A program made the translations under genes and the position numbers. From Centroscyllium fabricii (lineage: Eukaryota), in NCBI GenBank assembly GCA_051313645.2, contig JBNRSN020000028.1:14880001-14944000 (forward strand): 64,000 nucleotides of DNA. Direction: 5' to 3'. This document shows positions 1-56,979 of the stretch, piece after piece (position 1 is the stretch's first letter; each line of letters starts with the position of its first letter). The notes under the pieces were generated by a model. It saw only the letters and a list, made by a program, of their open reading frames with translations. It was not told the origin of the DNA and ran no database searches.

Positions 1-3000
1 CACGGGGCTACTCCGTGCAACACTCTCCAGGCCAAGTCCCCAATATAACAGGGGAAGACTCCCGCGTAGAGAGCTCCCCATTGGGGACCTCCGCCTCCGC
101 CGGATGGCAAAATGGCACACCAAGGCGTGTCCGGACGGCAGGCGAAGATGGCAAAGTGGAAAGTGTGCAGGAGCAGCCCGTACAGGAAACGCCAACGTGC
201 GGTGTCAAAAGGCATGAAGGGCATCTCACCGAGATGGCTCAAGTTGTGAGGCGCTGGTTCCCGAGAGGGGTTTCGGGGCCGGACGCCGATGAGGAATTCC
301 GTCCGAACGGGGGTCAGCTCGGACGGGAGTACCCCACTTCTTTGAGCCGCCTCAATTCTCGTAGTGTAGTCAAGGCCCAACGCCACTTTCAGCGACTTGA
401 TGGCTTTGGTCGCGGGCCGGACGTTATCATGTCCCAGGCGCTGCGCCAGTTCCACAGGCGCCATCCAGCCCGCTCCTCCGCCATCAAGCAGGTCCCTGAC
501 TATAGTCACCCTGCCAGGCACAGCTCTATTCTCCGCCAGCCACCCGAACCCTCGGTCTTGGAGGTGCGTATTCCTGAGCAGCGGCTCTCGAAGGAGAGCC
601 GCCACTCCTGACGGGAGAGAGGTGCGCCTGGAGGTGACGCTGTTCCAAACCCAAAGCAGTTCCTGGTAAAAGACAGGCAGCTCCCGCAGGCTTGCACGTG
701 TACCGCTTATTTTCACAAACAGGAGCTGCGTGTCATAGTTGAGGCCGTGCAGCTGGCGGAAGAAATACGTCACCAGCGCACACCATCTAGGAGGATCCTC
801 GACGTACAGGTATCTCTGCAGCGTCTGAAGACGGAAAGTCGCCGCCTGAGTGCAGAGGCACACCAGCGCCTGACTGCCCACACTAAGCGGGAGATACAGA
901 ACCGCGGCGGAGACCCAGTGCTTCCTTTTGTCCCAGAAGAAGTCGATGAGCTTCTTCTGTAACCTGGCGACAAAATCAGGGGGAGGGATCAAAGTGACCA
1001 ACCGGTACCACAACATGGCGGCCACCAGTTGGTTTATGACTAGCGCTCGACCCCTGTAGGACAACACTCGGAGCAGCCCTGTCCAGCGCCCTAGCTGAGT
1101 GGTGACTTTGTCATCCAACGCTTGCCAGTTCACCGGCCAGGCTTCCTCGGCTGGGCTGAGGTGGACTCCCAAGTAGAGGAGGTGCGTGGTGCTCCAGGCG
1201 AAAGGCCTGAACTCCTCCGGCAGGGAGTCCACCCGCCACTGACCCACCAGGAGTCCGGAACATTTCTCCCAGTTGATCCTGGCGGAGGATGCGTCCGAGT
1301 AAATCTGCTGGCATTCTCGCATCCTCCGCAGGTCAGCGGGATCCGTGACCATGAGGAGCACATCATCGGCGTAAGCCGAAAGGACGACCTCCACACACGG
1401 TCCTTGCAGAGCCAGTCCCGTCAACCTCTTCCGCAAGAGGCGCAGGAAAGGCTCCATGCAAACGGCATATAACTGACCGGACATGGGGCATCCCTGATGT
1501 ACCCCCCTCCCAAAGCGAAGGGGTGCCGTCAAACACCCGTTAACTTTGATCAGACACTCCGCAGCAGCGTACAAAAGTCGGATCCGGGTGACGAAATGTG
1601 TCCCGAACCCGAATGCGTGCAGAGTCCCGAAAAGGTACTCGTGATCCACCCTGTCAAACGCCTTCTCCTGATCCAGGGAAAGGAAGGCGACCGACATACC
1701 AGCCCTCTGGGAATGGTGGAGCAGGTCCCAGACCAGATGGATGTTGTCGTGGATTGACCGGCCCGGGACCGTGTAGGACTGGTCGGGATGGATCATGTGG
1801 GCCAGCACGGTGCCAAGGCGGGCAGACATGGCCCTGGCAAAAATTTTGTAATCCGTGCTGAGGAGGGAGACCGGGCGCCAGTTTTTAAGTAGGCGGAGAT
1901 CGCCCTTCTTTGGCAGCAGGACAATGACGGCCCTGCGCCACGAGAGGGGCATCTCCCCGGTCGCTAGACTTTCCCCCAGGACCCGCTGGTAATCGCCCCC
2001 CAGGACGTCCCAGAACGCCCTGTGGAACTCCACGGTCAGCCCGTCCAGCCCCGGGGACTTTCCCCTCGAGAGCGTGCCGAGGGCGCCGGTCAGCTCCGCC
2101 AGAGTTAGCGGAGCGTCCAATTGTTCGGCGCCCTCCGGACTGACCTTCGGCATGTCCTCCCACAAAACTCTACGCGCATCCTCGCTGGACGGATCCGGAG
2201 AGAACAGAGCCCCATAAAAAGACCGGGTCTCCGCACTGATCCCCTCCGGATCCGAGACCAGAGATCCGTCGTCGGCCAGCAGCATCAAAATCTGCTTACG
2301 GACCCCTTGCCTTTTTTCCAGCGAGTAGAAGAAGGGGGAGCCGCGGTCCAGATCCCACAGGAACTGGATACGCCACCTCACGAACGCGCCTCGGGACCCG
2401 ACGAGCTGCAGGTCCTTCAGCGCGGCCTTCTTTTCTTCGTACACCGTCCGCAGGGCCGGGTCCCCGACGACCTGACCGAGGCGGGACTCTAGGTCGAGCA
2501 CTTCCTTCTCTAATCGCCTGACCTGAGCCTTCCGTCCCTTGGTCGACCCCCTCGCGTACTCCTGACAGAAGAGATGGACGTGAGCCTTGCCCACGTCCCA
2601 CCATAGCCTCAAGGAGGGGAAGCCCCCCTGCTTCCTTCTCCAGTCGGCCCAAAACCGACGGAACGAATCCCGGAATCGCGCGTCCTCCAGCAGCAGGTTG
2701 TTAAAATGCCAGTACGTGGACCCCCCCGCGCGCGCAACAGAGCGAGCTCTGTCCACACCAGGTGGTGGTCCGTGCACGGCACCGGCCGCATGGAAGCCGC
2801 CCGAACGCAGGAGACGTACGCCCGAGAAATGTAGAGGCGGTCGATTCGGGAGCCTCCTCCTCCAGGCCTCACGTGAGTGAAGGCGCTCGAGTCGGGATGG
2901 AGATTCCGCCAGACGTCCACCAAGTCGAAGGACCCGACCAGGTCCCTCAACTTCTCTGTCGCCGCCGGGCTGCGCAGGCAACCCGAATGGTCCCTCGCCT

Positions 3001-3445
3001 CGAGGGTACAATTAAAATCCCCCCCGAGGATGATGCACTCGCCGCCGTCGACAGAGCTCAGAAGAGCGGACACTTCTTCAAAGAAGCGCACTTGCTGCGC
3101 ACCGATCTGAGGGGCGTACACGTTCACAAGATGGAGCGGCACGCCCCCGTGACGAACAGTGACCTGGAGCAAGCGGCCCGGCACGTGCTCCTTGACCCTC
3201 AATATCTCCGGCTGAAAATGTGGGGCCAGCAAGATAGCCACCCCGCGGGACATGTTGGAGAGGTGACTCATGCTGACCCATCCTTGCCACTCCAGGAGCC
3301 ACGTGGCATCGTCTCCCGGAACGGTGTGGGTTTCTTGCAGGAAGCACACCGCATACTTCCCGTCCCGAAGGACCGAGAATTTGTTAAATCTACTGTATGC
3401 CTCCCTGCTGCCGTTGATGTTGAGGCTAGCTATGGTTATCTTCAT
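1..3445 (-). pseudogene. Tx1 ORF2 (AP endonuclease + reverse transcriptase), frameshifted in this assembly
   Basis: MKITIASLNING..FLQETH..NVYAP..GGDFN..SRIDR..TDH endonuclease motifs (ORF 2609-3445). YWHFNN resumes after a frameshift at the C7 run 2721-2727. HQGCPMSG at ~1480-1500 and YADD at 1362-1373. Confidence 0.9.
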
Positions 3446-3470
3446 ATCAGCAGTCTAATACTAATTTTTC

Positions 3471-5656
3471 CTATTGGGGAGAAGGAGCGCAATCCTTGGG
3501 TATACGCTCCTTCTTCCGCAGCCCATTGAGGAACTTCTTGAGCCGGCGCAGCTCGAGGTCATTATCGCCCCTGTCCGTGGCCAAGGTTTTAATGGCGACG
3601 CGGACGGATAAAATGAGCGGCGCCAGCTCCGACCACCTTTCGATGGCCTGACGGACCAGTTTTTGGTGACCCAGGCGCACAGCCACAAATTTCCAGAGCT
3701 CCGCCACGGGGATGAGGGGAGACTCGGCGGGGGGCTCGGGGCCGTCCACCATCTCATCGGTGACGAACTCCAGATCATCATCCGCACCCGGCTCCGAGTC
3801 CTCGTCCTCTTCCGGAAGGCCACCACCGGCGTCCGATCCATCAGCCACGCATAACGCGACTAACGGCTCGGCCGCACCGTCCGACCCTACCTCTGTCTCG
3901 ATCCCACCCCCAGGATCGGTGGAAGAGGAGTCTTCCCTGGGCTCCACCAGGGGTGCCGGGCCAGAGGGGGGCAGCAGTTCGGGGCTCCCCTCCTCCTCAA
4001 GCGCCGGAGAGCATGGAGAGACGGGGATGTATTCATATATTATCTTCTCCTGTGCGTCCAACGCCGATTTTGAGGGAGGGGTGAAGGAGCCGTCACCTTC
4101 CCCGCCACCAACCACTGACCCAGCTTGTAGGGTATCCTGGCTTAGACTCTCGACCATATCGAGCAGCTCCTGGACAATACCATTTTTGTTTTGGGCGAGG
4201 TCTATCCCTTCGACCTCGTCCACCCCTGTCTCCAGGACGCCCGACCCGTCGAGGTAAATTTGTTCCCCTTGAGGGTTTTGGTATTGCAGAGGTAGTTCCT
4301 CGTCCCCCCTCCTCGGGCAGGGCCATATCCCCATCCCCGGGAGACACGGGCGGGGCAATCTCATCCGCCCCACTCTCCCACAAGACTGGCGACCCCCGCC
4401 TGTCTTTTACAACTATAGTGATTTTGGGAGGGGGCGCAGAGCACGACGACTCCGCTCCCTCGGTGGGACCGTCCTCATGATCACGGACGCCCTGCTGACC
4501 CTGGGAGTCGAAGTCCTGCTTCCTTTTTATCCCGAAGGGCCACTGAGGGGGGGTGACCTCCATTTCAGGCCACCCCCTCCTCTCTTCCCCCCGGCTGAAT
4601 AGTTGTTTCGGGCCCCTTTTTTCCGAGCCCTGCCGCAGGTGTTAGGTTTTCTGCCATGGTAGTGGCGGCCGCAGGCACAGACTCGGGGCCCTCCTTGCTC
4701 CCATATTGATCCACCAGACCCTTGATGTAATCGGGAGTCATGGCTGGCAAGTCCTGCTGTTGGGCATCCCCTTCTAGGGGACCCTCCCTCCTTTGTTTTC
4801 TTTTGTTCCGCGCCTTCTTTCTGGCTGGACATGTTTCCTCCCCCCCGCTGGAGGCCGTGATGACATTGGCCTCCGACGACTCCCGCGCACCCGACTTCCA
4901 AGACGCGCGGCCTGACTCTGGGGGAGGAGCGGCGCCGGTGCCATTTTTGGCCGCACTATTATTGGCGGCCTTGGAGGCGGGGCAGTTCCTCCTGATATGC
5001 CCCACCTCCTTACATGCATGGCACCGCACACCGTCCGTCGTCCAGAAGACGCGGTAGGCGGTCACCTGGTACAGCATGGGGAACGCGCCATCAGTGTCCT
5101 CCTCCCGCGCCAGCTGCATAAATAGGTGACGCCGGAAGGAGAAGACATGGCGAAGGCTGGCCTCCCGGAACCCGAGCGGGATGGGCGTTATCCCCGACCT
5201 CACCTCCCCAAGTTTGCGTAGGTGGGGGAGGAGGAGCTCACCGGGAATATAGGGCGGGATGTTTGAGAGGACCACCCTCTGCCCGGCGGCCTCAAGAGGG
5301 TCCACCGACAGGAAGGTGCCGCCCACGGTGAGCCCTTGTTCGATGGCCAGGGCCGCCGCCCGCTCAGATTTCAGGAAGAACACAGCCTTCCCATACATTT
5401 TAGAGGCCGCGACGATGGCTGAGGGGCCGACCACCCCAGCCATGGCCTTGACACATGCCTCTATTGTCATTGATGGGTGAGCGTAGCTCCTCACCCCCAG
5501 TTTCCTTGTTAGTAGCCGGAAAGGTGACGGGGCATCAGGGGCAGCCGTGGTCCTGGCAGTGGATGCCACGGTTGCGTATGTTCCCGATGTCCCCGCCACC
5601 AGCGAAGATGTTGTCGCTATGCTACCAGGTGGGGGGGTTTTTGGAGCCATGCTCAC
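3471..5656 (-). pseudogene. Tx1 ORF1 (gag-like nucleic-acid-binding protein), split by frameshifts
   Basis: ORF 4565-5656 contains CHACKEVGHIRRNC (CCHC) and ASKMYGKAVFFL. The acidic C-terminal part continues in ORFs 4093-4563 and 3471-4373 and ends just before the ORF2 ATG. Confidence 0.8.
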
Positions 5657-6960
5657 CCCAAGTCACAGGCCTTAGAGTTTAAAATGGCCTCAGATTGGTT
5701 TATTTGATTTTCCTCTTGAGCAGAGGGGGGGGGGGGTGATTAGATAAAGACACACCCCTCCCCTTGATGACAGAAGGGGGCTTAGGGGCCTTCTCCCCTC
5801 TACTCAATTGGCAATAGAAAAAATGAAAGGAAAGTAAATAATTGAGGTGCCTCTAGGGAAAGAGGCAGAGAGAGAGAGAGAGAGAGAGAGGGGTGGTGGG
5901 AAGGAGGGAGACCACAAGGGTTGGGTCCCCACTCAGGATGGATGGGTGGGTGGGTGTTGACTAAAGCAGGGTGCACTCTGCGATGGAAAAAGAAACCCCG
6001 GATGATGGTCTTCTGGTGGGGGGAGAAGATGTCTTCACCTGGGATAGCTGGAGATGCCCAGGCTCAGTCCACACCAGGTCTTTAAATATGTTCGATTAAT
6101 CAAAGACTTCACCTAGGCAGCTCCAGCTGTCCCAGGCCAGGCAATAGAAGGGGTGTTTTTAGTGGTGTGCGTGGCCTAGTTTGAATAGAAACCACACACA
6201 CAGAAACACACACCCTTTGATGGTCCGGCCTTCTGCTCTTCTTTTCTCCCCCCTCCCACAAATAAACACAGTCTTTGAGAGAGTGCACCTAATGAAACAA
6301 CACCAACCTTAAGATGGTTATTCTCCCTCCTTCCGAGCAGTTGGTGATGATGATATCTTCCTCACCCCTCTCTCCCTCTCCCGAAATGGAGGCCAATCTG
6401 GAAGGCAATGATGGGAAGGCCTCAATGTAGTTGTTTTTGCCGGATTCTTGGCCTGCCTTTCCTCTCCTCCGTCCTCTCTCCCGAGGCACCTCTGCTTTAC
6501 AAAGTATTCGAAGGGATGAATCCCAGCACTGAGTTCAGCAGTAAATTTAACTCTTCTGTAACTGAGCTTCAGGTGGCAGAACGCAATGTCCAGAATGTAG
6601 GCAACCGTAGTTCTCCGAAGTCCGCTCCACAGCTAAGACTCACTCTACCCGAGTTTCAAGAAGAGAATACATCATCTACAAGGCAGGGGAACGCCCAAAC
6701 CCATTGCATCTCCAGGAGCTCAGACAGCAACCACTCCTTCGTAGTAATGAGTAGTAAGTAGAATGATCCGGCCACTGCCTGGTCTCAGCACCCAGCTTAT
6801 AAGCCGACTAGATAGATTAGTGCTAACCAATAAGAATGCAGGTATAGAGAACGAGGAACCCACAGGTATGTGCACAGGTAATTGAGGTATAATGAACCAA
6901 AACAGAGAACTAAACATAGAATTCCAAAATGGATTCCTTAAAGGGGAATGCCATCTGTGA

Positions 6961-9900
6961 CAGGAGTCCGTGGTGAGATGGGGATTGAGTGTGTTGTCAC
7001 TGTGACTTGTATTAGCAGGAGTCCGTGTTGAGGAGGGGATTGAGTGTGTTGCCAGTGGGTCTTGTATTAGCATGGACCGTGGTGAGGAGGGGATTGAGGG
7101 TGTTGTCAGTGTGTCTTGTATCAGCAGGTGTCCGTGGTGAGGAAGGGATTGAGTGTGTTGTCAGTGTGTCTTGTAGTAGCAGGAGTCCGTGTTGAGGAGG
7201 GGATTGAGCGCGTTGTCAGTGTGTCTTGTATTAGCAGGAGTCCGTGTTGAGGAGGGGATTGAGTGTGTTGCCAGTGTGTCTTGTATCAGCAGGAGTCCGT
7301 GGTGAGGTGGGGTTTGAGTGTGTTGTCAGTGTGTCTTGAATTAGCAGGAGTCCGTGGTGAGATTGGGATTGAGTGTGTTGCCAATGGGTCTTGTATTAGC
7401 AGGAGTCTGTGTTGAGGAGGGGATTGAGTGTGTTGCCAGTGGGTCTTGTATTAGCAGGGTCCGTGGTGAGGAGGGGATTCAGTGTGTTGTCAGTGTGTCT
7501 TGTATCAGCAGGAGTCCGTGGTGAGGAGGGGATTGAGCGTGTTGTCAGTGTGTCTTGTATTAGCAGGAGTCCGTGGTGAGGAGGGGATTGAGTGTGTTGT
7601 CAGTGAGTCTTGTATTAGCAGGAGTCCGTGGTAAGGAGGGGATTGAGTGTGCTCTCAGTGTGTCTTGTATTAGCAGGGGTCCGTGGTGAGGAGGGGATTG
7701 AGGGTGTTGTCAGTGTGTCTTGTATTAGCAGGAGTCCGTGGTGAGATGGGGATTGAGTGTTTTGTCAGTGTGTCTTGTATTAGCAGGGTCCGTGTTGAGG
7801 AGGGGATTGAGTGTGTTGTCAGTGTGTCTTGTATTAGCAGGAGTCCGTGTGGAGGAGGGGATTGTGGGTGTTGTCAGTGTGTTTTGTATTAGCAGGGGTC
7901 CCTGGTGAGGAGGGGATTGAGTGTGTTGCCAGTGTGTCTTGTATTAGCAGGGTCCGTGTTGAGGAGGCGATTGAGTGTGTTGTCAGTGTGTCTTGTATTA
8001 GCAGGGGTCCGTGGTGAGGAGGAGATTGAGTGTGTTGTCAGTGTGTCTTGAATTAGCGGGGTCCGTGGTGAGGAGGGGATTGAGTGTGTTGTCAGTGTGT
8101 CATGTATTTGCAGGGTCCGTGGTGAGGAGGGGATTGAGTGTGTTGTCAGTGTGTCTTTTATTAGCAGGGTCCGTGGTGAGGATGGGATTGAGTGTGTTGT
8201 CAGTGTGTCTTGAATTAGCAGGAGTCCGTGGTGAGGAGGGGATTGAGTGTGTTGTCAGTGTGTCTTGTATTAGCAGGAGTCCCTGGTGAGGAGGGGATTG
8301 AATGTGTTGTCAGTGTGTCTTGTATTAGCAGGAGTCCGTGGTGAGCAGGGGTTTGAGTGTGTTGTCAGTGTGTCTTGTATCAGCAGGGTCCGTGGTGAGG
8401 AGGGGATTGAGTGTGTTGTCAGTGTGTCTTGTATTAGCAGGGTCCGTGGTGAGGAGGCGATTGAGTGTGTTGTCAGTGTGTCTTGTATTAGCAGGGGTCC
8501 GTGGTGAGGAGGTGATTGAGTGTGTTGTCAGTGTGTCTTGTATTAGCAGGGTCCGTGGTGAGATGGGGATTGAGTGTGTTGTCAGTGTGTCTTCTATTAG
8601 CAGGAGTCCATGGTGAGGTGGGGATTGAGTGTGTTGCCAGTGGGTCTTGTATTAGCAGGGTCCGTGGTGAGGAGATGATTGAGTGTGTTGCCAGTGGGTC
8701 TTGTATTAGCAGGGGTCCGTGGTGAGGAGCGGATTGAGTGTGTTGTAAGTGTGTCTTGTATTAGCAGGAGTCCGTGGTGAGGAGGAGATTGAGTGTGTTG
8801 TCAGTATGTCTTGTATTAGCAGGAGTCCGTGGTTAGGAGGGGATTGAGTGTGTTGTCAGTGTGTCTTGTATTAGCAGGGGTCCGTGGTGAGGAGCGGATT
8901 GAGTGTGTTGTCAGTGTGTCTTGTATCAGCAGGGTCCGTGGTGAGGAGGAGATTGAGTGTGTTGTCAGTGTGTCTTGTATTAGCAGGAGTCCGTGGTGAG
9001 GAGGAGATTGAGTGTGTTGTCAGTGTGTCTTGTATTAGCAGGGGTCCGTGTTGAGGAGGGGATTGAGTTTGTTGTCAGTGTGTCTTGTATTAGCAGGAGT
9101 CCGTGTTGAGGAGGGCATTGAGTGTGTTGTCAGTGTGTCTTGTATTAGCAGGAGTCCGTGTTAAGGAGGGGATTGAGTGTGTTGCCAGTGGGTCTTTTAT
9201 TAGCAGGGTCCGTGGTGAGGAGGGGATTGAGTGTGTTGTCAGTGTGTCTTGTATCAGCAGGTGTCCGTGGTGAGGAAGGGATTGAGTGTGTTGTCAGTGT
9301 GTCTTGTAGTAGCAGGAGTCCGTGTTGAGGAGGGGATTGAGTGTGTTGCCAGTGTGTCTTGTATCAGCAGGAGTCCGTGGTGAGATGAGGATTGAGTGTG
9401 TTGTTGTGGGTCTTGTATTAGCAGGGTCTGTGGTGAGGAGGGGATTGAGTGTGTTGTCAGTGTGTCTTGTATCAGCAGGAGTCCGTGGTGAGGAGGGAAT
9501 TGAGTGTGTTGTCAGTGTGTCTTGTATTAGCAGGAGTCCGTGGTGAGATGAGGATTGAGTGTGTTGTTGTGGGTCTTGTATTAGCAGGGTCCGTGGTGAG
9601 GAGGGGATTGAGTGTGTTGTCAGTGTGTCTTCTATCAGCAGGAGTCCGTGGTGAGGAGGGAATTGAGCGTGTTGTCAGTGTGTCTTGTATTAGCAGGAGT
9701 CCGTGGTGAGGAGGGAATTGAGTGTGTTGCCAGTGGGTCTTGTATTAGCAGGGTCCGTGGTGAGGAGGGGATTGAGTGTGTTGTCAGTGTATCTTGTATT
9801 AGCAGGGATCCGTGGTGAGGAGCTGATTGAGTGTGTTGTCAGTGTGTCTTGTATTAGCAGGATCCGTGGTGAGGAGGGGATTGGGTGTGTTGTCAGTGTG

Positions 9901-12900
9901 TCTTGTATTAGCAGGGTCCGTGGTGAGGACGGGTTTGATTGTGTTGTCAGTTTGTCTTGTATTAGCAGGGTCCGTGGTGAGGAGGGTATTGAGTGTGTTG
10001 TCAGTGTGTCTTGTATTACCAGGGCCCGTGGTGAGTTGGGGATTGAGTGTGTTGTCAATGTGTCTTCTATTAGCAGGAGTCCATGGTGAGGAGGGGATTG
10101 AGTGTGTTGTCATTGGGTCTTGTATTAGCAGTGTCCGTGGTGAGGAGCGAATTGAGTGTGTTGTAAGTTTGTCTTGTACTAGCAGGAGTCCGTGGTGAGG
10201 AGGAGATTGAGTGTTTTGTCAGTGTGTCTTGTATTAGCAGGAGTCCGTGGCGAGGAGGGGATTAAGTGTGTTGTCAGTGTGTCTTGTATTAGCAGGAGTC
10301 CGTTGTTAGGAGGGGATTGAGTGTGTTGTCAGTGTGCCTTGTATTAGCAGGGGTCCGTGGTGAGGAGGGGATTGAGTGTGTTGTCAGTGTGTCTTGAATT
10401 AGCGGGGTCCGTGGTGAGGAGGGGATTGAGTGTGTTGTCAGTGTGTCGTGTATTTGCAGGGTCCGTGGTGAGGAGGGGATTGAGTGTGTTGTCAGTGTGT
10501 CTTTTATTAGCAGGGTCCGTGGTGAGGAAGGGATTGAGTGTGTTGTCAGTGTGTCTTGAATTAGCAGGAGTCCGTGGTGAGGAGGGGATTGAGTGTGTTG
10601 TCAGTGTGTCTTGTATTAGCAGGAGTCCTTGGTGAGGAGGGGATTGAGTGTGTTGTCAGTGTGTCTTGCATTAGCAGGGGTCCGTGGTGAGGAGGGGATT
10701 GAGTGTGTTGTCAGTGTGTCTTGTATTAGCAGTGGTCCGTGGTGAGGAGAGGATTGAGTGTGTTGTCAGTGTGTCTTGTATCAGCAGGGTCCGTGGTGAG
10801 GAGGGGATTGAGTGTGTTGTCAGTGTGTCTTGTATTAGCAGGGTCCGTGGTGAGGAGGCGATTGAGTGTGTTGTCAGTGTGTCTTGTATTAGCAGGGGTC
10901 CGTGGTGAGGAGGTGATTGAGTGTGTTGTCAGTGTGTCTTGTATTAGCAGGGTCCGTGGTGAGATGGGGATTGAGTGTGTTGTCAGTGTGTCTTGTATTA
11001 GCAGGGTCCGTGGTGAGGACGGGTTTGATTGTGTTGTCAGTGTGTCTTGTATTAGCAGGGTCCGTGGTGAGGAGGGTATTGAGTGTGTTGTCAGTGTGTC
11101 TTGTATTAGCAGTGTCCGTGGTGAGATGGGGATTGAGTGTGTTGTCAGTGTGTCTTCTATTAGCAGGAGTCCATGGTGAGGAGGAGATTGTGTGTGTTGC
11201 CAGTGGGTCTTGTATTAGCAGGGTCCGTGGTGAGGAGGGGACTGAGTGTGTTGTCAGTGTGTCTTGTATTAGCAGGAATCCGTGGTGAGGAGGAGATTGA
11301 GTGTGTTGTCAGTATGTCTTGTATTAGCAGGAGTTCGTGGTTAGGAGGGGATTGAGTGTGTGTCTTGTATTAGCAGGGGTCCGTGGTGAGGAGGGGATTG
11401 AGTGTGTTGTCAGTGTGTCTTGTATCAGCAGGGTCCGTGGTGAGGAGGAGATTGAGTGTGTTGTCAGTGTGTCTTGTAGTAGCAGGGGTCCGTGGTGAGG
11501 AGGAGATTGAGTGTGTTGTCAGTGTGTCTTGTAATAGCAGGGGTCCGTGTTGAGGAGGGGATTGAGTTTGTTGTCAGTGCGTCTTGTATTAGCAGGAGTG
11601 CGTGTTAAGGAGGGGATTGAGTGTGTTGCCAGTGGGTCTTGTATTAGCCGGGTCCCTGGTGAGGAGGGGATTGAGTGTGTTGTCAGTGTGTCTTGTATCA
11701 GCAGGAATCCGTGGTGAGGAGGGAATTGAGTGTGTTGTCAGTGTGTCTTGTATCAGCAGGAGTCCGTGGTGAGGAGGGAATTGAGCGTGTTGTCAGTGTG
11801 TCTTGTATTAGCAGGAGTCCGTGTTAAGGAGGGGATTGAGTGTGTTGCCAGTGGGTCTTCTATTAGCAGGGTCCGTGGTGAGGAGGGGACTGAGTGTGTT
11901 GTCAGTGTGTCTTGTATTAGCAGGAATCCGTGGTGAGGAGGTGATTGAGTGTGTTGTCAGTGTGTCTTGTATTAGCAGTGTCCGTGGTGAGGAGGGGATT
12001 GAGTGCGTTGTCAGTGTGTCTTGTATTAGCAGAGTCCGTGGTGAGTTGGGGATTGAGTGTGTTGTCAGTGTGTCTTCTATTAGCAGGAGTCCATGGTGAG
12101 GAGGGGATTGAGTGTGTTGTCATTGGGTCTTTTATTAGCAGGGTCCGTTGTGAGGAGCGAATTGAGTGTGTTGTAAGTGTGTCTTGTATTAGCAGGAGTC
12201 CGTGGTGAGGAGGAGATTGAGTGTGTTGTCAGTGTGTCTTGTATTAGCAGGAGTCCGTGGCGAAGAGGGGATTAAGTGTGTTGTCAGTGTGTCTTGTATT
12301 AGCAGGAGTCCGTGGTTAGGAGGGGATTGAGTGTGTTGTCAGTGTGTCTTGTATTAGCAGGGGTCCGTGGTGAGGAGGCGATTGAATGTGTTGTCAGTGT
12401 GTCTTGTATCAGCAGGGTCCGTGGTGAGGAGGGGATTGAGTGTGTTGTCAGTGTGTCTTGTATTAGCAGGAGTCCGTGCTGAGGAGGAGATTGAGTGTGT
12501 TGACAGTGTGTCTTGTATTAGCAGGGGTCCGTGTTGAGGAGGGGATTGAGTTTGTTGACAGTGTGTCTTGTATTAGCAGGAGTCCGTGTTGAGGAGGGGA
12601 TTGAGTGTGTTGTCAGTGTGTCTTGTATTAGAGGAGTCCGTGGTGAGATGGGGATTGAGTGTGTTGTCAGTGTGTCTTGTATTAGCAGGAGTCCGTGTTA
12701 AGGAGGGGATTGAGTGTGTTGCCAGTGGGTCTTGTATTAGCAGGGTCCGTGGTGAGGAGGGGATTGAGTGTGTTGTCAGTGTGTCTTGGATCAGCAGGTG
12801 TCCGTGGTGTGGAAGGGATTGAGTGTGTTGTCAGTGTGTCTTGTAGTAGCAGGAGTCCGTGGTGAGGAGGGGATTGAGCGTGTTGTCAGTGTGTCTTGTA

Positions 12901-15900
12901 TTAGCAGGAGTCCGTGTTGAGGAGGGGATTGAGTGTGTTGCCAGTGTGTCTTGTATCAGCAGGAGTCCGTGGTGAGGAGGGGATTGACTGTGTTGTCAGT
13001 GTGTCTTGTATTAGCAGGAGTCCGTGGTGAGATCAGGATTGAGTGTGTTGCCAGTGGGTCTTGTATTTGCAGGGCCCGTGGTGAGGAGGGGATTGAGTGT
13101 GTTGTCAGTGTGTCTTGTATCAGCAGGAGTCCGTGGTGAGGAGGGGATTGAGCGTGTTGTCAGTGTGTCTTGTATTAGCAGGAGTCCGTGGTGAGGAGGG
13201 GATTGAGCGTGTTGTCAGTGCGTCTTGTATTAGCAGGAGTCCGTGGTAAGGAGGGGTTTGAGTGTGCTGTCAGTGTGTCTTGTATTAGCAGGGGTCCGTG
13301 GTGAGGAGGGGATTGAGGGTGTTGTCAGTGTGTCTTGTATTAGCAGGAGTCCGTGGTGAGGAGGGGATTGAGTGTGTTGTCAGTGTGTCTTGTATCAGCA
13401 GGGTCCGTGGTGAGGAGGAGATTGAGTGTGTTGTCAGTGTGTCTTGTAGTAGCAGGAGTCCGTGGTGAGGAGGAGATTGAGTGTGTTGTCAGTGTGTCTT
13501 ATAATAGCAGGGGTCCGTGTTGAGGAGGGGATTGAGTTTGTTGTCAGTGCGTCTTGTATTAGAGTCCGAGGTGAGATGGGGATTCAGTGTGTTGTCAGTG
13601 TGTCTTGTATTAGCAGGAGTGCGTGTTAAGGAGGGGATTGAGTGTGTTGCCAGTGGGTCTTGTATTAGCCGGGTCCCTGGTGAGGAGGGGATTGAGTGTG
13701 TTGTCAGTGTGTCTTGTATCAGCAGGAGTCCGTGGTGAGGAGGGAATTGAGTGTGTTGTCAGTGTGTCTTGTATCAGCAGGAGTCCGTGGTGAGGAGGGA
13801 ATTGAGCGTGTTGTCAGTGTGTCTTGTATTAGCAGGAGTCCGTGTTAAGGAGGGGATTGAGTGTGTTGCCAGTGGGTCTTCTATTAGCAGGGTCCGTGGT
13901 GAGGAGGGGACTGAGTGTGTTGTCAGTGTGTCTTGTATTAGCAGGAATCCGTGGTGAGGAGGGGATTGAGTGCGTTGTCAGTGGGTCTTGTATTAGCAGA
14001 GTCCGTGGTGAGGAGGAGATTGAGTGCGTTGTCAGTGTGTCTTGTATAAGCAGAGTCCGTGGTGAGTTGGGGATTGAGTGTGTTGTCAGTGTGTCTTCTA
14101 TTAGCAGGAGACCATGGTGAGGAGGGGATTGAGTGTGTTGTCATTGGGTCTTGTATTAGCAGGGTCCGTGGTGAGGAGCGAATTGAGTGTGTTGTAAGTG
14201 TGTCTTGTATTAGCAGGAGTCCGTGGTGAGGAGGAGATTGAGTGTGTTGTCAGTGTGTCTTGTATTAGCAGGAGTCCGTGGCGAAGAGGGGATTAAGTGT
14301 GTTGTCAGTGTGTCTTGTATTAGCAGGAGTCCGTGGTTAGGAGGGGATTGAGTGTGTTGTCAGTGTGTCTTGTATTAGCAGGGGTCCGTGGTGAGGAGGC
14401 GATTGAGTGTGTTGTCAGTGTGTCTTGTATCAGCAGGGTCCGTGGTGAGGAGGGGATTGAGTGTGTTGTCAGTGTGTCTTGTATTAGCAGGAGTCCGTGG
14501 TGAGGAGGAGATTGAGTGTGTTGTCAGTGTGTCTTGTATTAGCAGGGGTCCGTGTTGAGGAGGGGATTGAGTTTGTTGTCAGTGTGTCTTGTATTAGAGG
14601 AGTCCGTGGTGAGATGGGGATTGAGTGTGTTGTCAGTGTGTCTTGTATTAGCAGGAGTCCGTGTTAAGGAGGGGATTGAGTGTGTTGCCAGTGGGCCTTG
14701 TATTAGCAGGGTCCGTGGTGAGGAGGGGATTGAGTGTGTTGTCAGTGTGTCTTGTATCAGCAGGTGTCCGTGGTGTAGAAGGGATTGAGTGTGTTGTCAG
14801 TGTGTCTTGTAGTAGCAGGAGTCCGTGGTGAGGAGGGGATTGAGCGTGTTGTCAGTGTGTCTTGTATTAGCAGGAGTCCGTGTTGAGGAGGGGATTGAGT
14901 GTGTTGCCAGTGTGTCTTGTATCAGCAGGAGTCCGTGGTGAGGAGGGGATTGAGTGTGTTGTCAGTGTGCCTTGTATTAGCAGGAGTCCGTGGTGAGATC
15001 AGGATTGAGTGTGTTGCCAGTGGGTCTTGTATTTGCAGGGCCCGTGGTGAGGAGGGGATTGAGTGTGTTGTCAGTGTGTCTTGTATCAGCAGGAGTCCGT
15101 GGTGAGGAGGGGATTGAGCGTGTTGTCAGTGTGTCTTGTATTAGCAGGAGTCCGTGGTAAGGAGGGGGTTGAGTGTGCTGTCAGTGTGTCTTGTATTAGC
15201 AGGGGTCCGTGGTGAGGAGGGGATTGAGGGTGTTGTCAGTGTGTCTTGTATTAGCAGGAGTCCGTGGTGAGGAGGGGATTGAGTGTGTTGTCAGTGTGTC
15301 TTGTATTAGCAGGAGTCCGTGGCGAGGAGGGGATTAAGTGTGTTGTCAGTGTGTCTTGTATTAGCAGGAGTCCGTGGTGAGGAGGGGATTGATAGTGTTG
15401 TCAGTGTGTCTTGTATTAGCAGGAGTCGGTTGTGAGGAGGGGATTGAGTGTGTTGTCAGTGTGTCTTGTATTAGCAGGGGTCCGTGGTGAGGAGGGGATT
15501 GATAGTGTTGTCAGTGTGTCTTGTATTAGCAGGAGTCGGTTGTGAGGAGGGGATTGAGTGTGTTGTCAGTGTGTCTTGTATTCGCAGGAGTCCGTGGTGA
15601 GGAGGTGATTGAGTGTGTTGTCAGTGTGTCTTGTATCAGCAGGGTCCGTGGTGAGGAGGGGATTGAGTGTGTTGTCAGTGTGTCTTGTATTAGCAGGAGT
15701 CCGTGGTGAGGAGGGGATTGAGTGTGTTGTCAGTGTGTCTTGTATTAGCAGGGGTCCGTGTTGAGGAGGGGTTTGAGTGTGTTGTCAGTGTGTCTTGTAT
15801 TAGCAGGGTCCGTGGTGAGGAGGGGATTGAGTGTGTTGTCAGTGTGTCTTGTATCAGCAGGTGTCCGTGGTGAGGAAGGGATTGAGTGTGTTGTCAGTGT

Positions 15901-17795
15901 GTCTTGTATTAGCAGGAGTCCGTGTTGAGGAGGGGATGAGTGTGTTGCCAGTGGGTTTTGTATTAGCAGGGTCCGTGGTGAGGAGGGGATTGAGTGTGTT
16001 GTCAGTGTGTCTTGTATCAGCAGGAGTCCGTGGTGAGGAGGGGATTGAGCGTGTTGTCAGTGTGTCTTGTATTAGCAGGAGTCCGTGGTGAGGAGGGGAT
16101 TGAGTGTGTTGTCAGTGTGTCTTGTATTAGCAGGAGTCCGTGGTAAGGAGGGGATTGAGTGTGTTGTCAGTCTGTCTTGTATTAGTTGGAGTCCGTGGTG
16201 AGGAGGGGATTGAGTGGTGTTTTCAGTGTGTCTTGTATTAGCAGGAGCCGTGGTGAGGAGGCGATTGAGTGTGTTCCCAGTGTGTCTTGTATCAGCAGGA
16301 GTCCATGGTGAGGACGGGATTGAGGGGGATGTCAGTGTGTCTTGTATTAGCAGGGTCCGTGGTGAGGAGGGTATTGAGTGTGTTGTCAGTGTGTCTTGTA
16401 TTAGCAGGGTCCGTGGTGAGGAGGGGATTGAGTGTGTTGCTAGTGGGTCTTGTATTAGCAGGTGTCCGTGGTGAGGAGGGGATTGAGTGTTTTGTCAGTG
16501 TGTCTTGTATTAGCAGGAGTCCGTGGTGAGGAGGGGATTGAGTGTGTTGTCAGTGTGTCTTGTATTAGCAGGGTCTGTGGTGAGATGGGGATTGAGTGTG
16601 TTGTCAGTGTGTCTTGTATTAGCAGGAGTCCATGGTGAGGAGGGGATTGAGTGTGTTGTCAGTGTGTCTTGTATTAGCAGGGTCCGTGGTGAGGAGGAGA
16701 TTGAGTGTGTTGTCAGTGTGTCTTGTATTAGCAGGAGTCCGTGGTGAGATGGGGATTGAGGGTGTTGTCAGTGTGTCTTGTATTAGCAGGAGTCCGTGTT
16801 GAGTAGGGGATTGAGTGTGTTGCCAGTGGGTCTTGTATTAGCAGTGTCGGTGGTGAGGAAGGGATTGAGTGTGTTGCCAGTGTGTCTTTTATTAGCAGGA
16901 GTCCGTGGTGAGGAGGGGATTGAGTGTTTTGTCAGTGTGTCTTGTATTAGCAGGAGTCCGTGTTGAGTAGGGGATTGAGTGTGTTGCCAGTGGGTCTTGT
17001 ATTAGCAGTGTCGGTGGTGAGGAAGGGATTGAGTGTGTTGCCAGTGTGTCTTGTATTAGCAGGAGTCCGTGGTGAGGAGGGGATTGAGGGTGTTGTCAGT
17101 GTGTCTTGTATTAGCAGGAGTCCGTGTTGAGTAGGGGATTGAGTGTGTTGCCAGTGGGTCTTGTATTAGCAGTGTCGGTGGTGAGGAAGGGATTGAGTGT
17201 GTTGCCAGTGTGTCTTGTATTAGCAGGAGTCCGTGGTGAGGAGGGGATTGAGTGTGTTGTCAGTGTGTCTTGTATCAGCAGGAGTCCATGGTGTGGAAGG
17301 CATTGAGTGTGTTGCCAGTGTGTCTTGTATTAGCAGGAGTCCGTGGTGAGGAGGGGATTGAGCGTGTTGTCAGTGTGTCTTGTATTAGCAGGAGTCCGTG
17401 TTGAGGAGGGGATTGAGTGTGTTGTCAGTGTGTCTTGTATTTGCAGGGTCCGTGTTGAGGAGGGGATTGAGTGTGTTGTCAGTGTGTCTTGTATTAGCAG
17501 GAGTCCGTGGTGAGGAGGGGATTGAATGTGTTGTCAGTGTGTCTTGTATTAGCAGGGTCCGTGGTGAGGAGGGGATTGAGTGTGTTGTCAGTGTGTCTTG
17601 TATCAGCAGGAGTCCGTGTTGAGGAGGGGATTGAGTGTGTTGCCAGTGTGTCTTGTATTAGCAGGAGTCCGTGTGAGGAGGGGATTGAGTGTGTTGTCAC
17701 TGTGTCTTGTATTAGCAGGAGTCCGTGGTGAGGAGGGCATTGAGTGTGTTGTCAGTGTGTCTTGTATTAGCAGGGTCCGTGATGAGGAGGGGATT
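6961..17795 (+). repeat. 54/55-bp tandem satellite, ~198 copies
   Basis: Unit GAGTGTGTTGTCAGTGTGTCTTGTATTAGCAG-GAGTCCGTGGTGAGGAGGGGATT; 54-bp variants have GCAGGGTCC. Higher-order duplications are visible (e.g. ~2.0 kb offset, 11730 vs 13751). Confidence 0.97.
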
Positions 17796-18094
17796 TCCCC
17801 AAACCGAGCAGGTGACGGCGGCGGAGGGACAATCGGTTCAAATCCGGTGCGATGCGACCACCAGGAGCAGTGAATGATTTTGTGTTATCGGCAATTACCG
17901 GGCCGGGCACCGCAATTCACAATCTCCGCCAATCAGTAATACAGCCGACGGGAGCGGGGGGTTCAAGTTATTCGTTGACAGAAGGAGGAGTTATAACAGT
18001 TTCGGTGTGCGGGAAACCGCGGCTCCAGACTCCAGGGGTATTGCTGTGCGAATACGGACATGGGGCAAAGGGTGAGAAATCCTGTACAGTAAGC
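17774..18094 (+). pseudogene. TCR V pseudogene (paralog of the V at 56660) with degenerate RSS
   Basis: EQVTAAEGQSVQIRCDATT..YRQLPGRAPQF..FKLFVDRRRSYNSFG aligns with 56660-56940. Frameshifts and stops. RSS remnant GGACATG-23-ACAGTAAGC at 18056-18094. Confidence 0.85.
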
Positions 18095-28796: not shown

Positions 28797-29226
28797 ATGG
28801 CGCGGGTTGAGCTGCTCCTGATGTCCATTGTAATAGGTAGATGGTGTTATGTGTTCCCTCTGCTGGAGTGAATATTGCTAATTAACAGAGGCACTAACCG
28901 ATAATTTTATTCATTGTTACAGGTAAAATCCAAGGGAGTTCGGTAACGCAGCCTCCAGATGAGGTGAAGGTTTCCGAAGGGGAAAATCCTCAGTTGAGCT
29001 GCAATTACAAGACTAGTTCGGCTGATCCGGATCGTTACTGGTACCGGTTGTACCCGAACCAGGCCCCGCAGTTTATCTTGTACCGTGATAACACCAGGGG
29101 AAGGGATGCCGAGTTTGCGAAAGGAAAATTCGACGCTCGCCATTTCCGTCAATATCAAGTTTTTCCTTTATCAATTTCTGCGGCAGAGACTGAAGACAGC
29201 GCCGTCTATTTCTGCGGACTGAGGAT
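28797..29226 (+). CDS. TRAV: TCR alpha/delta V gene segment, apparently functional (leader 28797-28836, V exon 28923-29226)
   Basis: MARVELLLMSIVI|GKIQGSSVTQ..LSCNY..YWYRL..DSAVYFCGLR. Both Cys and the Trp present; GT-AG phase-1 intron. Confidence 0.88.
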
Positions 29227-29265
29227 CACGGTGCTTCAAAACTGCTCGATTTCCGTACAAAAACC
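29227..29265 (+). other. 23-RSS
   Basis: CACGGTG-23-ACAAAAACC. Confidence 0.93.
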
Positions 29266-30129: not shown

Positions 30130-33100
30130 ACTCGTTCGTCCTGATTGTTATACTCTGTTCCTGTCCACTAGTCCTGGGATCCTCAATCAGCGGAAACAGT
30201 TTTGCTCTACCTACCCTATCAGTTCCCCTTAAAATCTTGAAAGCTTCGAACATATCCCCCATAACCCTATACATTCCGTGTCAAACAACCCTAGTTTGTG
30301 TCATCTCTCCTCGTAAGTTAACCCTTGAAGTCCAGCAAATCTACTGTGCACTCCCTCCAAGGCCAATACATCCTTCCTAGGATGTGGTGCCTAGAGCTGC
30401 TCACAGTACTCCAGGTCTGGTCTAACCAGGGTTTGTATAGCGGTAGCATAACTACTACCCCCTTGTACTCTAGTTCTCTGGATATAAAGGCCAGCATCCC
30501 ATTAGCCTTTCTGATTATTTTCTGTACCGGTCCATGACATTTTAATGATCCATGTACCTGGACCTCAAGTCTCTTTGAACCGCCACTGTTTCTAGTTTTT
30601 CACCATTTAGAAAGTGCTCTGTTCTATAATTTTTAGTTTCAAAGTGGATAACCTCACACTTGCCTACATTGAATGTCATTTGTCACTGTTTTGCCCATTC
30701 AGTTAATCTATTAATATCTCCTTGTAATTGTATTCCTCCATCTACACTGCTTCCAATAGCGCCAATATTTGTGTTGTCGGCAAAGTTGGATATGTGACTT
30801 TCTATCCCACAATCTACACCTTTAATAAATACAATGAATATATGAGACCCCAACACAGATCCTTGCGAGATATCAATTGGCGTATCTGTCCTGTCAATTA
30901 GAGAACCTGCACATTACCACTAATCTCAGTATCCTGCCACTCAGCCCATTAGAGAACCTGCCCATTAACCCTACTTTCTGTCGCCTGCCCCTCAGCCCAT
31001 TAGAGAACCTGCCCATTACCCCAACTCACTGTCTCCTGCCCCTCAGCCCATTAGAGAACCTGCCCATTACCTCTGATCTCTCTCTCCTGCCCCTCCGCCC
31101 ATTAGAGAAACTGCCCATTACCCCACTCTCTCTCTCCTACCCCTCAGCCCATTAGAGAACCTGCTCATTACCCCTACTCCCTGTCTCCTGCCCCTCAGCC
31201 CATTAGCGAACCTGCCCATTACCCCTACTCTCTGTCTCCTGCCCCTCAGCCCGTAAGAGAACCTGCCCATTACCCCTACTCTCTGTCTCCTGTTGCTCAG
31301 CCCATTAGAGAACCTGCCCATTAAATCCACTCTCTCTCTCCTGCACTTCAGCCCATTAGCGAACCTGCCCATTACCCCTACTCTCTCTCTCCTGCCCCTC
31401 AATCCATTAGAGAACCTGCCCATTACCCCTACTCTCTGTCTGCTGTCCCTGAGCCCATTAGAGAACATGCCCATTACCCCTACTCCCTGTCTCCTGCCCC
31501 TCAGCCCATTAGAGAACTTGCCCATTACCCCCACTCTCTGTCTCCTGCCCCTCAGCCCATTAGAGAACCTGCCCATTACCCCTACTCTCTGTCTCCTGCC
31601 CCTCAGCCCATTAAAGAACCTGCCCATTACCCCTACTTTCTCTCTCCTACCCCTCAGCCCATTAGAGAATCTGCCCATTACCCCTACTCTCTGTCTCCTG
31701 CCCCTCAGCCCATTAAAGAACCTGCCCATTACCCCTACTCTCTCTCTCCTGCCTCTCAGCCCATTAGAGAACCTGCTCATTACCCCTACTCCCTGTCTCC
31801 TGCCCCTCAGCCCATTAGCGAACCTGCCCATTACCCCTACTCTCTGTCTCCTGTCCCTGAGCCCATTAGAGAACCTGCCCATTACCCCTACTCCCTGTCT
31901 CCTGCCCCTCAGTCCATTAGAGAACCTGCCCATTACCCCTACTCCCTGTCTCCTGTCCCTGAGCCCATTAGAGAACCTGCCCATTACCCCTACTCACTGT
32001 CTACTGCCCCTCAGCCCATTAGAGAACCTGCCCGTTACCCCTACTCTCTGTCTCCTGCCCGACAGCCCATTAGAGAACCTGCCCATTATCCCTACTCTCT
32101 GTCTCCTGCCCCTCAGCCCGTTAGAGAACCTGCCCATTAGCCCTACTCTCTCTCTCCTGCACTTCAGCCCATTAGCGAATCTGCCCATTACCCCTACTCT
32201 CTCTCTGCTGCCCCTCAACCCAATAGAGAACGTGCCCATTACCCCTACTCTCTGTCTCCTGTCCCTGAGCCCATTAGAGAACCTGCCCATTACCCCTACT
32301 CCCTGTCTCCTGCCCCTCAGCCCATTAGAGAACCTGCCCATTACCCCCACTCTCTGTCTCCTGCCCCTCAGCCCATTAGAGAACCTGCCCATTACCCCTA
32401 CTCTCTGTCTCCTGCCCCTCAGCCCATTAAAGAACATGCCCATTACCCCTACTCCCTGTCTCCTGCCACTCAGCCCATTAGAGAACCTGCCCATTACCCC
32501 TACTCTCTCTCTCCTGCCCCTCAGCCCATTAGAGAACCTGCCCATTAACCCTACTCTCTCTCTCCTGTCCTTCAGCCCATTAGAGAACCTGCTAATTACC
32601 CCAACCACTGTCTCCTGCCACTCAGCCCATTAGAGAACCTTCCCATTACCCCTACTCTCAGTTTCCTGCCCTTCAGCCCATTAGAGAACCTGCCCATTAC
32701 CCCTACTCTCAGTCTCCTGCCCCTCAGCCCATTGGAGAACCTGCCCATTACCCCTACCCTCTGTCACCTGCCGCTCAGCCCATTAGAGAACCTGCCCATT
32801 ACTCCTACTCTCTGTCACCTGCCGCTCAGCACAGTAGAGAACCTGCCCATTACCCCTACTCCCTGTCTCCTGCCCCCCAGCCCATTAGAGAACCTGCCCA
32901 TTACCCCTACTCTCTCTCTCTCCTGTCCCACAGCCCATTAGAGAACCTGCCCGTTACCCCTTCTTTCTGTCTCCTGCCCCTCAGCCTATTAGAGAACCTG
33001 CCCATTACCCCTACTCGCTGTCTCCTGCCCCACAGCCCATTAGAGAACCTGCCCATTCTCCCAACTCTATGTCTCCTGCCCCTCAGCCCATTATAGAACC

Positions 33101-36100: not shown

Positions 36101-37990
36101 ATTAGAGAACCTGCCCATTACCCCTACTCCCTGTCTCCTGTCCCTCAGCCCATTAGAGAACCTACCCATTACCCCTACTCTCTCTCTCCTGCCCCTCAGC
36201 CCATTAGAGAACCTGCCCATTACCCCTACTCCCTGTCTCCTGCCCCTCAGCCCATTAGAGAACCTGCCCATTACCCCTACTCTATGTCTCCCGTCCCTGA
36301 GCCCATTAGAGAACCTGCCCGTTACCCCTACTCACTGTCTCTTGCCCCTCAGCCCATTAGAGAACCTGCCCATTACCCCCACTCTCTGTCTCCTGCCCCT
36401 CAGCCCATTTCCTCACCAATCAATGATTTCCTTCACTTGAACGAGCTTCAACTTTAGCTGACATTCTCTTGTAAGAGACGTTATCAAATGCCTGCTGGAA
36501 GTCCGTAAAATAACATCCATAGACAACTCCCTTTCCAGTACTTCGTCACCTCTTCAAAATATTCAATCAAATTCGTCAGGCTCTCTCTGACCAACTGAAA
36601 ACTTTCAAGGTGTTCAGTCACCTACCCTTAATTATAGACTCTAGCAATTTCCCCAAAACAGAAGTGAGGTTAACTGGTCTATAATTACGTGGTTTTCCTC
36701 TCTCGCCTTTCTGAAATAGCAGTGACATGCGTCATTTTCCAATCTAGAAAACTGTTCCCGAATCGAGAGAACTTTGGAAGGTTATAGTTAGGACACCTGC
36801 AATGTTCTCACTTGCATCCTCTGAAACCCTGGCTTGGAAACCATCCTGTCCTGGGGATTTGTCACTCCTCAGTGCCATTGTTTGCTTCATTATTGTTATT
36901 TTTCTTATGTTAATTTTGGTAATTTCCCATCCCTGTGTCAATATTAGTTTCCTTGGAATGCCTGGATGCGATTCTCTTCCTCCACTGAAAATACTGACGC
37001 CAACTAATTATTCGACATGTCCGCCTTTCAGTATTTTCATTGAGAACGTCGGTTTTCAGGGGACCCGCATTGCTCATAACCAACTTCATTTTCCTAATAT
37101 AATAGTTAAAAAATTGTTTATTTTTCTCGCCCTTGCAAGTTACTTTTCATACTCTAATTCTGAAGCTCTTACTATGTTTTTTACTTGTGTTGTTCTTTTT
37201 ACATCTCCCAGGATCAGGGTTAGTTTTTGTATATTTGTAAGCTTTATCTTCTAGTTTTATGTTGTCCCTTACCTCTTTAGTTGTGATTGGCTGTTTCTTG
37301 GCAGTTAGTGGCCTTGCCCATTAGGGGTATAATCTGATTCAGTATCACACTAAATTCCTTTTTGAACATCTCCCACTGATATTCTGTCGTTTCGCCCATG
37401 TTTTGTCCAGTTTACTGTGGACACCCCCTGCCCCATTCCATTGAAGTCAGCCTTACCTAATTATATCATCTTAGCAGCTGCTTCGCGTTTTTGCATTGAA
37501 ACATTAGGATGAACTCGATCATATTATGATTGCTATGTGATAAATGTTACGCATAGTTGTGCTGCTAACTACATCTGGCTCATTACCCATTGCGAAATAT
37601 AATATGACCTGCCCCCTTTTTGATTCTAGGACATATTATTGCAGGAAACTATCCTGAACCAACAAAATCAATTCGCTTCTTATTGACATGAGTTACTCTT
37701 CTTATCCCAATCTGCATGATAGTTAAATTCCCCCATTAAAATCATTCTGCCTTTTCCACACGCTTGCCTAATCTCTGCATTTATACATTCTACCACTTCA
37801 CAACTGCTACCAGAGGGCATATAGATAACTCCCACTGCAGTATTAAACCTTTTCCTATTTTAATTCTACCCACAAAGTCTCCATTGCCTGCTCCCCTCTC
37901 GGTATATCCCCTCTTACCATTCAAGTGAATTCATCCCAACTCACTAAGGCTGCTCCTCCCCTTCCACCATTTTCCCTAACCTCTGCCTAT
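30130..37990 (-). mobile_element. Decayed CR1 LINE hosting an internal satellite expansion
   Basis: Minus-strand RT remnants on both sides of the array: DFQQAFD at ~36490, QGSVLG at ~30850-30865, KSPGQDGF at ~36850. Confidence 0.8.
30895..36409 (+). repeat. 51-bp tandem satellite, ~108 copies, derived from CR1 RT
   Basis: Unit TTAGAGAACCTGCCCATTACCCCTACTCTCTGTCTCCTGCCCCTCAGCCCA. Minus strand reads GRRQRVGVMGRFSN, compared with CR1 DRKQRVGVNGSFS. Confidence 0.97.
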
Positions 37991-56542: not shown

Positions 56543-56940
56543 ATGAATGAAATTGTAACTTTCACATGTTTGATTTTCGGTGAGTATTATTGGCAGAAAA
56601 GCGTTCGCCGTTAAAATTTATTTCTTTTGTCTGATTTTCCATCTGTTTTATATCGACAGTTATCGGCGGCGAGGCTGTGATCCACCAACCACAGCAGGTG
56701 TTTGCACCAGAGGGACAATCGATTGAAATCCAGTGCAACGCGACCACCAGCGGCACTGAGAGTATCTTCTGGTACAGACAACTACAGAACCGTAGCCCGA
56801 CATTTATCATATCTGCTATCCAGGGCAACGCCACTGATGGACGATTCAGACTCTTCATCGACCCAACAAGAAGTTATAACAGTCTCGGTATGGACAGCAC
56901 TGCGGTATCAGATACTGGACTGTATCACTGTGCAGTGAGG
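56543..56940 (+). CDS. TRAV: TCR alpha/delta V gene segment, apparently functional (leader 56543-56579, V exon 56660-56940)
   Basis: MNEIVTFTCLIF|VIGGEAVIHQPQ..IQCNA..FWYRQ..DTGLYHCAVR. Confidence 0.85.
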
Positions 56941-56979
56941 CACCGTGTGTCAAAGGCTGAGCGCTCCAGTACAATATCC
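56941..56979 (+). other. 23-RSS
   Basis: CACCGTG-23-ACAATATCC. Confidence 0.8.

Follow-up and report, generated by a model that had tools for sequence, protein, structure and literature searches.

A 55-bp satellite derived from the intron/exon junction of a T-cell receptor alpha/delta-type V pseudogene in the shark Centroscyllium fabricii

How does a splice-acceptor junction come to be repeated head to tail in front of an antigen-receptor exon, and does the repetition do anything to, or for, the gene that carries it? The question is raised by a window of 64,000 nucleotides, the whole stretch of DNA analysed, from the shark Centroscyllium fabricii (contig JBNRSN020000028.1, positions 14,880,001 to 14,944,000, forward strand). 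A sequence-only reading of this stretch had described a satellite born in situ from a TCR V gene, which may have inactivated the gene or may act as a splicing trap. In our analysis, the array is quite probably a locus-restricted satellite that grew from the boundary between intron and exon in a V pseudogene of TCR alpha/delta type, likely after the gene had died and likely without a function.

In the window, TRF reports a 55-bp array at 6961-17795 with 198.5 copies and 90% matches. Decomposition yields 198 full units, mostly 55 or 54 nt long, at 6963-17795 on the plus strand, in agreement with the roughly 198-fold amplification first proposed; the CA at 6961-6962 is the end of an inserted element and lies outside the array. 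The division of the unit into 32 nt of V intron end and 23 nt of V exon start is correct, and so is the remark that the last repeat runs seamlessly into the pseudo-exon: the last unit passes directly into it, with the acceptor AG at 17772-17773 and the exon from 17774. CAG is kept in 180 of the 198 window units, G/GTGAG in 144 and both in 126, as expected from the description of tandem acceptors mostly followed by a donor-like site. The proposed extent of 6961-18094 is incomplete: a further 69-70 units, together with the leader, are found upstream, outside the window, at G000:C800:14874761-14878573. Three other readings of the unit are rejected. A coding repeat protein is precluded by 119-201 stops in every frame of the window array; the best match to the general nonamer motif of a cryptic RSS is 6/9, behind a non-canonical heptamer; and a G-quadruplex drive is at odds with borderline G4Hunter-like values (mean 0.62, best 25-nt window 1.2) and with the expansion of a neighbouring 51-bp array at 0.51/0.72. 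As an observation in its own right, a linked GA-to-AT doublet at unit positions 47-48 occurs in 340 of 3042 units of all arrays; with it, the unit end looks like a GAGATGGGATT stretch of the intron ~20 nt upstream of each array, from which the doublet was possibly templated.

The exon downstream of the array is a TCR alpha/delta-type V pseudo-exon (17774-18056, plus strand). Relative to the intact family, the window's copy carries shifts of +1, -1, -2 and -1, the last of which, before the second Cys codon, is common to all seven exons of the subfamily. A decayed 23-spacer RSS follows (18057-18094, plus strand), whose heptamer starts with GAC, not CAC, in all three array-bearing exons; CAC is kept in three of the four single-unit paralogs described below. 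In the window's copy, the leader donor has changed from GT to CT. Leader, intron and RSS are homologous to those of the intact family, which is represented in the window by a distant paralog at 56543-56979 (plus strand) with a leader at 56543-56579, an 80-nt intron, a V exon from 56660 and an RSS of the form CACCGTG-23-ACAATATCC. This gene is one of eight close copies in the locus with 91-100% protein identity. It matches the Pfam V-set at 5e-13, its PDB matches are mostly TCR alpha chains, and the Atlas comparison places it with TVA clusters (0.95-0.96). The V-set exon, the leader, the short phase-1 intron, the 23-spacer RSS and the surrounding V cluster, in which most of 90 V-like matches fall (C800, 10.6-15.2 Mb), are those of a TCR alpha/delta V gene; a PF09291 search for the alpha/delta constant gene gave no match, and neither did its control. 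A V exon of a different family, open and followed by a canonical 23-RSS, lies at 28931-29263 (plus strand). Another open V exon at 61083-61373 (minus strand) has a non-canonical heptamer region and a good nonamer, and V genes of the cluster occur in both orientations. Homolog searches with the pseudogene frame (near lengths) and with the intact V (longer and near lengths) returned no match.

The unit had been aligned with the intact gene at 56.6 kb. The similarity stands (33 identities and a global score of 40, which none of 1000 shuffles reached; shuffled mean 9.8, s.d. 5.7), but this gene is a distant relative, ~35% divergent. The true single-copy counterparts, 12-14% divergent, are found by a genome search with the junction: four paralogous V pseudogenes at 11.07-11.28 Mb, L004-L007, 3.4-3.6 Mb away, in each of which the segment is present once. 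Identity to the unit is 47 and 50 of 55 bases in L004 and L005, and 40 and 41 of 45 in L006 and L007, from which 10 nt are deleted. All four keep the order leader, intron (77-78 nt) and exon seen in the intact family. Three observations corroborate the proposed birth in situ from a TCR V intron/exon junction. First, the single-unit paralogs carry the segment at its gene position. Second, the array ends are exact: all four arrays identified in the region start at one intron base (..AAACATATT/GAG), and three of the four (A, B and C) end at one exon base (GATT/TCCCC). Third, the repeat is restricted to the locus, as detailed below. The 55-bp unit stems from the stretch of a TCR V pseudogene in which the intron ends and the exon begins.

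The four paralogs, with one unit each, represent the starting state, from which a single 55-bp tandem duplication may have opened the expansion. In L005 and at all array ends the unit lies between two ATT triplets, and the duplication possibly took place between these; since the bounding microhomology is only 3 nt, with an expectation of ~5% by chance, it hints at this initiating step rather weakly. A fifth relic of the subfamily, L107 (G000:C800:11049154-11050152), is without leader, unit and exon and retains the upstream sequence and the region behind the RSS.

A census of 624 kb around the window finds four arrays where a single one of 10.8 kb had been proposed: A (14700194-14778877, 1222 units), B (14874761-14897795, 267 units, the distal 198 of which lie in the window), C (15000664-15082894, 1285 units) and D (15173002-15187728, 268 units). 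Together they comprise 3042 full units and 167,065 bp. They sit in tandem segmental duplicates with unique flanks 97.6-99.9% identical, and the whole cassette evidently was duplicated segmentally to give the four arrays. As the flanks of A and C are 99.1-99.9% identical, part of the copy count could represent two haplotypes assembled in tandem. Near-identical blocks, 45-113 units long, occur within arrays A and C, and array D has one such block of ~68 units; no near-identical blocks were found inside B. The distal block of B (B2) is collinear with A5 apart from a ~106-unit duplication, in A and C. In well-matched A5/C5 windows, 31 of 58 substitutions are changes to common unit variants, as conversion would predict. 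Growth would have proceeded by unequal exchange and conversion, with block duplications of ~45-113 units; the block structure is seen directly, and the mechanism is read from it. A separate observation concerns the mutational spectrum: low-frequency unit substitutions in B and D are transversion-rich (168 transitions, 355 transversions), transitions and transversions are near 1:1 in the unique flanks between cassettes, and the unit's single CpG is not clearly hypermutable.

Retroelements have entered the arrays, some of them being copied together with blocks. Array B is split by an 8.39-kb insertion whose distal part occupies positions 1-6962 of the window; its TG..CA ends and 5-bp target duplication (GGAGT) mark the ends as LTR-type. 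Within these LTR-type bounds lies a non-LTR retrotransposon, a LINE at 3-5662 on the minus strand with a zinc-knuckle ORF (4565-5662), an endonuclease (2609-3454) and a reverse transcriptase (3-3011). A 1,030-bp LINE-like fragment is found four times at one unit position, in A and C, and was copied with the blocks. An LTR retrotransposon in array C (G000:C800:15027438-15033073) has long open frames and two 100% identical 553-bp LTRs; these, and its absence from A, point to a very recent insertion. In array A, 21 kb of satellite interrupts the LINE with the loss of only a few bases (G000:C800:14737486-14758586), and 1-3 nt are shared on each side of the break. This near-clean break suggests a templated insertion, or the reintegration of a circle, of a satellite block.

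Array D ends differently, at an imperfect microhomology junction (GAGGAG..ATT/CC) to sequence equivalent to window position 58538. D is therefore without the interval 17796-58537 (~41 kb), where the pseudo-exon and two open V genes (28931-29263 and 56543-56979) are located, and one array end coincides with the loss of open V genes. The gap is best read as a deletion, since a 95%-identical older paralog lies on its far side; a microhomology event would then have removed ~41 kb together with the two V genes, the junction being observed directly and the direction argued from the paralog.

Could the satellite itself drive such changes? Its instability might promote cassette duplications and deletions that alter the number of functional V genes, and the array might also silence its neighbours. 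The D junction to sequence 41 kb downstream and the satellite block inside the LINE of array A speak for such a role, as does the fact that the arrays are found in precisely the four youngest cassettes. Against it, older cassettes without the V pseudogene have been duplicated as well (14.10, 14.27 and 14.58 Mb; 92-95% identity), only one inter-cassette breakpoint falls in an array, and the left edge of the young duplication is near an intact V and away from the array. We consider a structural driver unlikely. In its strongest form, the satellite of a dead V would be the rearrangement hub of this 0.5-Mb alpha/delta stretch, adding and removing working V genes, which we hold to be improbable; it is doubtful to the same degree that the arrays serve as templates for insertions into nearby elements and give rise to deletions and duplications. 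If the hub were real, a pseudogene splice junction would shape the germline T-cell repertoire between individuals.

The order of gene death and array birth bears on the suggestion that the gene may have been inactivated by the expansion. All seven V exons, three expanded and four unexpanded, have in common the loss of 1 nt that throws the second-cysteine motif (Y-H-C) out of frame. The four unexpanded paralogs are all broken, by stops or by the +1 shift: L006 and L007 carry an early stop, and the +1 shift is common to L004, L005 and the arrays. Because the Cys2 frameshift occurs in all seven exons, expanded or not, the V gene was probably dead before expansion. The array-bearing copies fall on a single branch (exon 98/97, upstream sequence 96/95), differ by 0-2.1% among themselves and by 7.4-13.8% from the single-unit paralogs. 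It is likely, by parsimony of the shared lesion, that the array arose a single time, in a gene already dead, and the shared frameshift and the tree suggest that the subfamily was already broken before expansion. This order rests on parsimony, as the exon tree leaves its three lineages (arrays, L004/5 and L006/7) unsplit: the deepest split is unsupported and the single-unit group reaches 40/57. Units average 4.7-5.1% from the majority unit, between the two ranges above, and this divergence is no clock because of homogenisation.

A different order would have the expansion kill a working V gene, the duplicated acceptor and exon start breaking leader-V splicing and the other lesions following later. 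The -1 and -2 shifts and the CAC-to-GAC change of the heptamer, all specific to array-bearing exons, would suit this order, as would a contig of a relative, organism C, that has neither the +1 shift nor the array. It founders on the Cys2 frameshift shared with the four unexpanded, likewise broken paralogs, and on the +1 shift in L004 and L005; already largely refuted by the shared frameshift, it is very unlikely. We return to death of the V gene before expansion as the preferred order.

If the array arose in a dead gene, its repeated splice sites probably do nothing. The alternative is a splicing decoy, in which thousands of paired acceptors and donor-like sites would intercept read-through transcripts, or germline V transcripts, and divert them to decay. 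Over all arrays, CAG and G/GTGAG are both kept in 2077 of 3042 units, and pseudo-sites in human junction minisatellites can function, according to the accessible text of PMC1557585. To judge the acceptors we compared them with acceptors of the locus, called automatically with their leaders at 20 of 24 V loci, from which 10 were kept by hand; the 10 dropped were six near-duplicates and four doubtful cases, some of the latter resembling the unit (no branch motif, an upstream AG). The unit's pyrimidine fraction of 0.56 lies at the bottom of the control range (0.56-0.81). The branch motif YTNAY is absent from 2698 of 2798 unit acceptors and present in 100, compared with 9 of the 10 controls, and another AG occurs within 25 nt upstream in 2792 of 2798, compared with none of the controls. 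The implied micro-exon is 8-9 nt long, and the next acceptor lies 46 nt further on, a gap below the usual size of a vertebrate intron. The G of the donor-like GT is variable in 13% of units, the splice motifs are conserved no better than the rest of the unit, the donor-like site is older than the expansion, being present already in L004 and L005, and in B the leader donor of the gene itself is gone. The proposed splicing trap finds no support in the sequence, and a decoy is hardly credible.

AID-type mutation of shark TCR alpha, described in the accessible text of PMC5931798, led us to examine the unit for hotspots. It resembles an Ig switch region in its G-rich sense strand, its GC skew of about +0.6 and its one overlapping AGC/GCA hotspot per unit. 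No excess of mutation is seen at WRC/GYW in the germline DNA of arrays B and D (12.5 vs 12.1 low-frequency changes per site), and we reject an AID or switch-like footprint. The 55-bp array is no evidence for a new splicing or immune mechanism.

Genome-wide, an exact 30-mer has 555 matches, 554 in arrays A-D and one in L005, and a second 24-mer has 62 of 62 in A-D. No spread to other loci is seen with these two exact patterns, with which diverged copies elsewhere would be compatible. The long head-to-tail arrays and their higher-order blocks are those of a satellite. Six samples from two studies (X1, X2, X5, X6, X7 and X8), one of which may be the assembly source, yield read contigs with loose ends or head-to-tail joints when their public runs are compared with the single-unit paralog L005. 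Depth bins over the unit reach 11,373 (X1) and 19,364 (X2) vs 22-106 in adjacent bins, values that are not copy numbers. In organism C (X9, one run with short contigs), all 30 bins over the gene family are covered, the depth peaks at 203 over the unit vs up to 249 beside it, and there is no depth spike and no joint among the contigs listed; together with its contig without +1 shift and array, this fits an unexpanded gene. That a dispersed satellite inserted into a V gene, or that the array is an assembly artefact, can practically be dismissed: the nearby genome does hold many other tandem arrays (27, 48 and 67 bp), but the absence of matches outside the locus and the single-copy homologs at the exact gene position refute a dispersed origin, and the joints and depth in independent read contigs contradict an artefact.

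A second, independent satellite of this locus, used here as an internal control, has a 51-bp unit in 108 copies at 30897-36409 (plus strand). It originated from one segment of the reverse-transcriptase region of a dispersed LINE; the source segment is single-copy in all six fetched copies of that LINE. All 19 matches of a 51-bp junction 24-mer lie on C800 at 14.1-15.1 Mb. Copies are also found at C800 14.10, 14.14, 14.27, 14.59, 14.79 and 15.10 Mb, with 11-172 units per measured copy. Its presence in the 92-95% identical cassettes indicates that the 51-bp satellite predates the young duplications of the 55-bp array. With at least two satellites born from decaying DNA within 13 kb, nothing special need be invoked for the splice-site origin of the 55-mer. 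Another array, with a 48-bp unit in 20-23 copies (G000:C800:14863899-14864985, with three paralogs), has a flank that we take to be a CR1-type LINE tail and is probably a third locus-born repeat. In addition, 27-bp arrays of up to 11.4 kb are numerous in both orientations at G000:C800:14.83-15.21 Mb and 11.12-11.29 Mb, and 67-bp and 52/53-bp arrays occur near the unexpanded paralogs; tandem repeats are unusually abundant in the V cluster.

As a rule, the ancestor is missing when the birth of a satellite family is reconstructed. Here the states coexist: a single copy in four paralogs and apparently in organism C, ~270 units in B and D, and ~1,250 in A and C. Retroelement insertions and segmental duplications are time marks by which the steps leading from a single copy to 70 kb of satellite can be put in order and, given further genomes, dated. 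Antigen-receptor V pseudogenes can thus seed 167 kb of repeat within their own locus. In the literature searched, apart from subscription papers and preprint supplements, we found no account of this array or of any satellite derived from a TCR V junction, and the accessible parts of the cattle immunogenome and elasmobranch genome preprints hold nothing on a 55-bp array.

The closest known systems are the donor-spanning minisatellites of human F7 IVS7 (37 bp), CBS IVS13, interferon-inducible 6-16, LAMIN B2 and PDGF, in which, by the accessible text of PMC1557585, at most two pseudo-sites are used. What they share with the 55-bp arrays is a unit that extends across an exon-intron boundary, so that a splice site is repeated head to tail. 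In the F7/CBS type, as far as that text goes, the donor is repeated 5-25 times in working genes, whereas here the acceptor is repeated ~270-1,290 times per array, ~50-fold more units, in a pseudogene whose exon is frameshifted and whose RSS and leader donor have decayed; higher-order blocks and embedded retroelements also set the 55-bp arrays apart. In human segmental duplications, variable repeats at exon-intron boundaries are frequent and average 4 units of 30 bp (160 bp), and internal repeats of NPIP reach 39 units, in the available portion of PMC2812944. Young paralogs there likewise differ in minisatellite copy number at boundaries, in the direction of expansion, but at an average of 160 bp rather than the 15-70 kb per array seen here.

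Microhomology-mediated tandem duplication is, from what is accessible of PMC13167724 and PMC3389668, widespread, mostly neutral and depleted from coding DNA, and L004-L007 supply a single-copy progenitor of the kind it starts from. The Haber-Louis model likewise turns a single-copy segment bounded by a short direct repeat into a tandem array. As available to us, it needs a direct repeat of 5-10 bp, whereas the 55-bp unit has 3 nt (ATT..ATT); the 51-bp array fits better, with CCAATT at both ends in five of its six LINE relatives. The birth-dissemination-amplification model, in the accessible text of PMC5615363, shares with the present case de novo local duplication, amplification and block-wise homogenisation. 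It differs in that dissemination is missing here, the satellite having moved by segmental duplication only, and in that the ancestral state is retained. Junction-spanning minisatellites were already known; what this locus adds to them is the acceptor side, the scale and a preserved ancestor.
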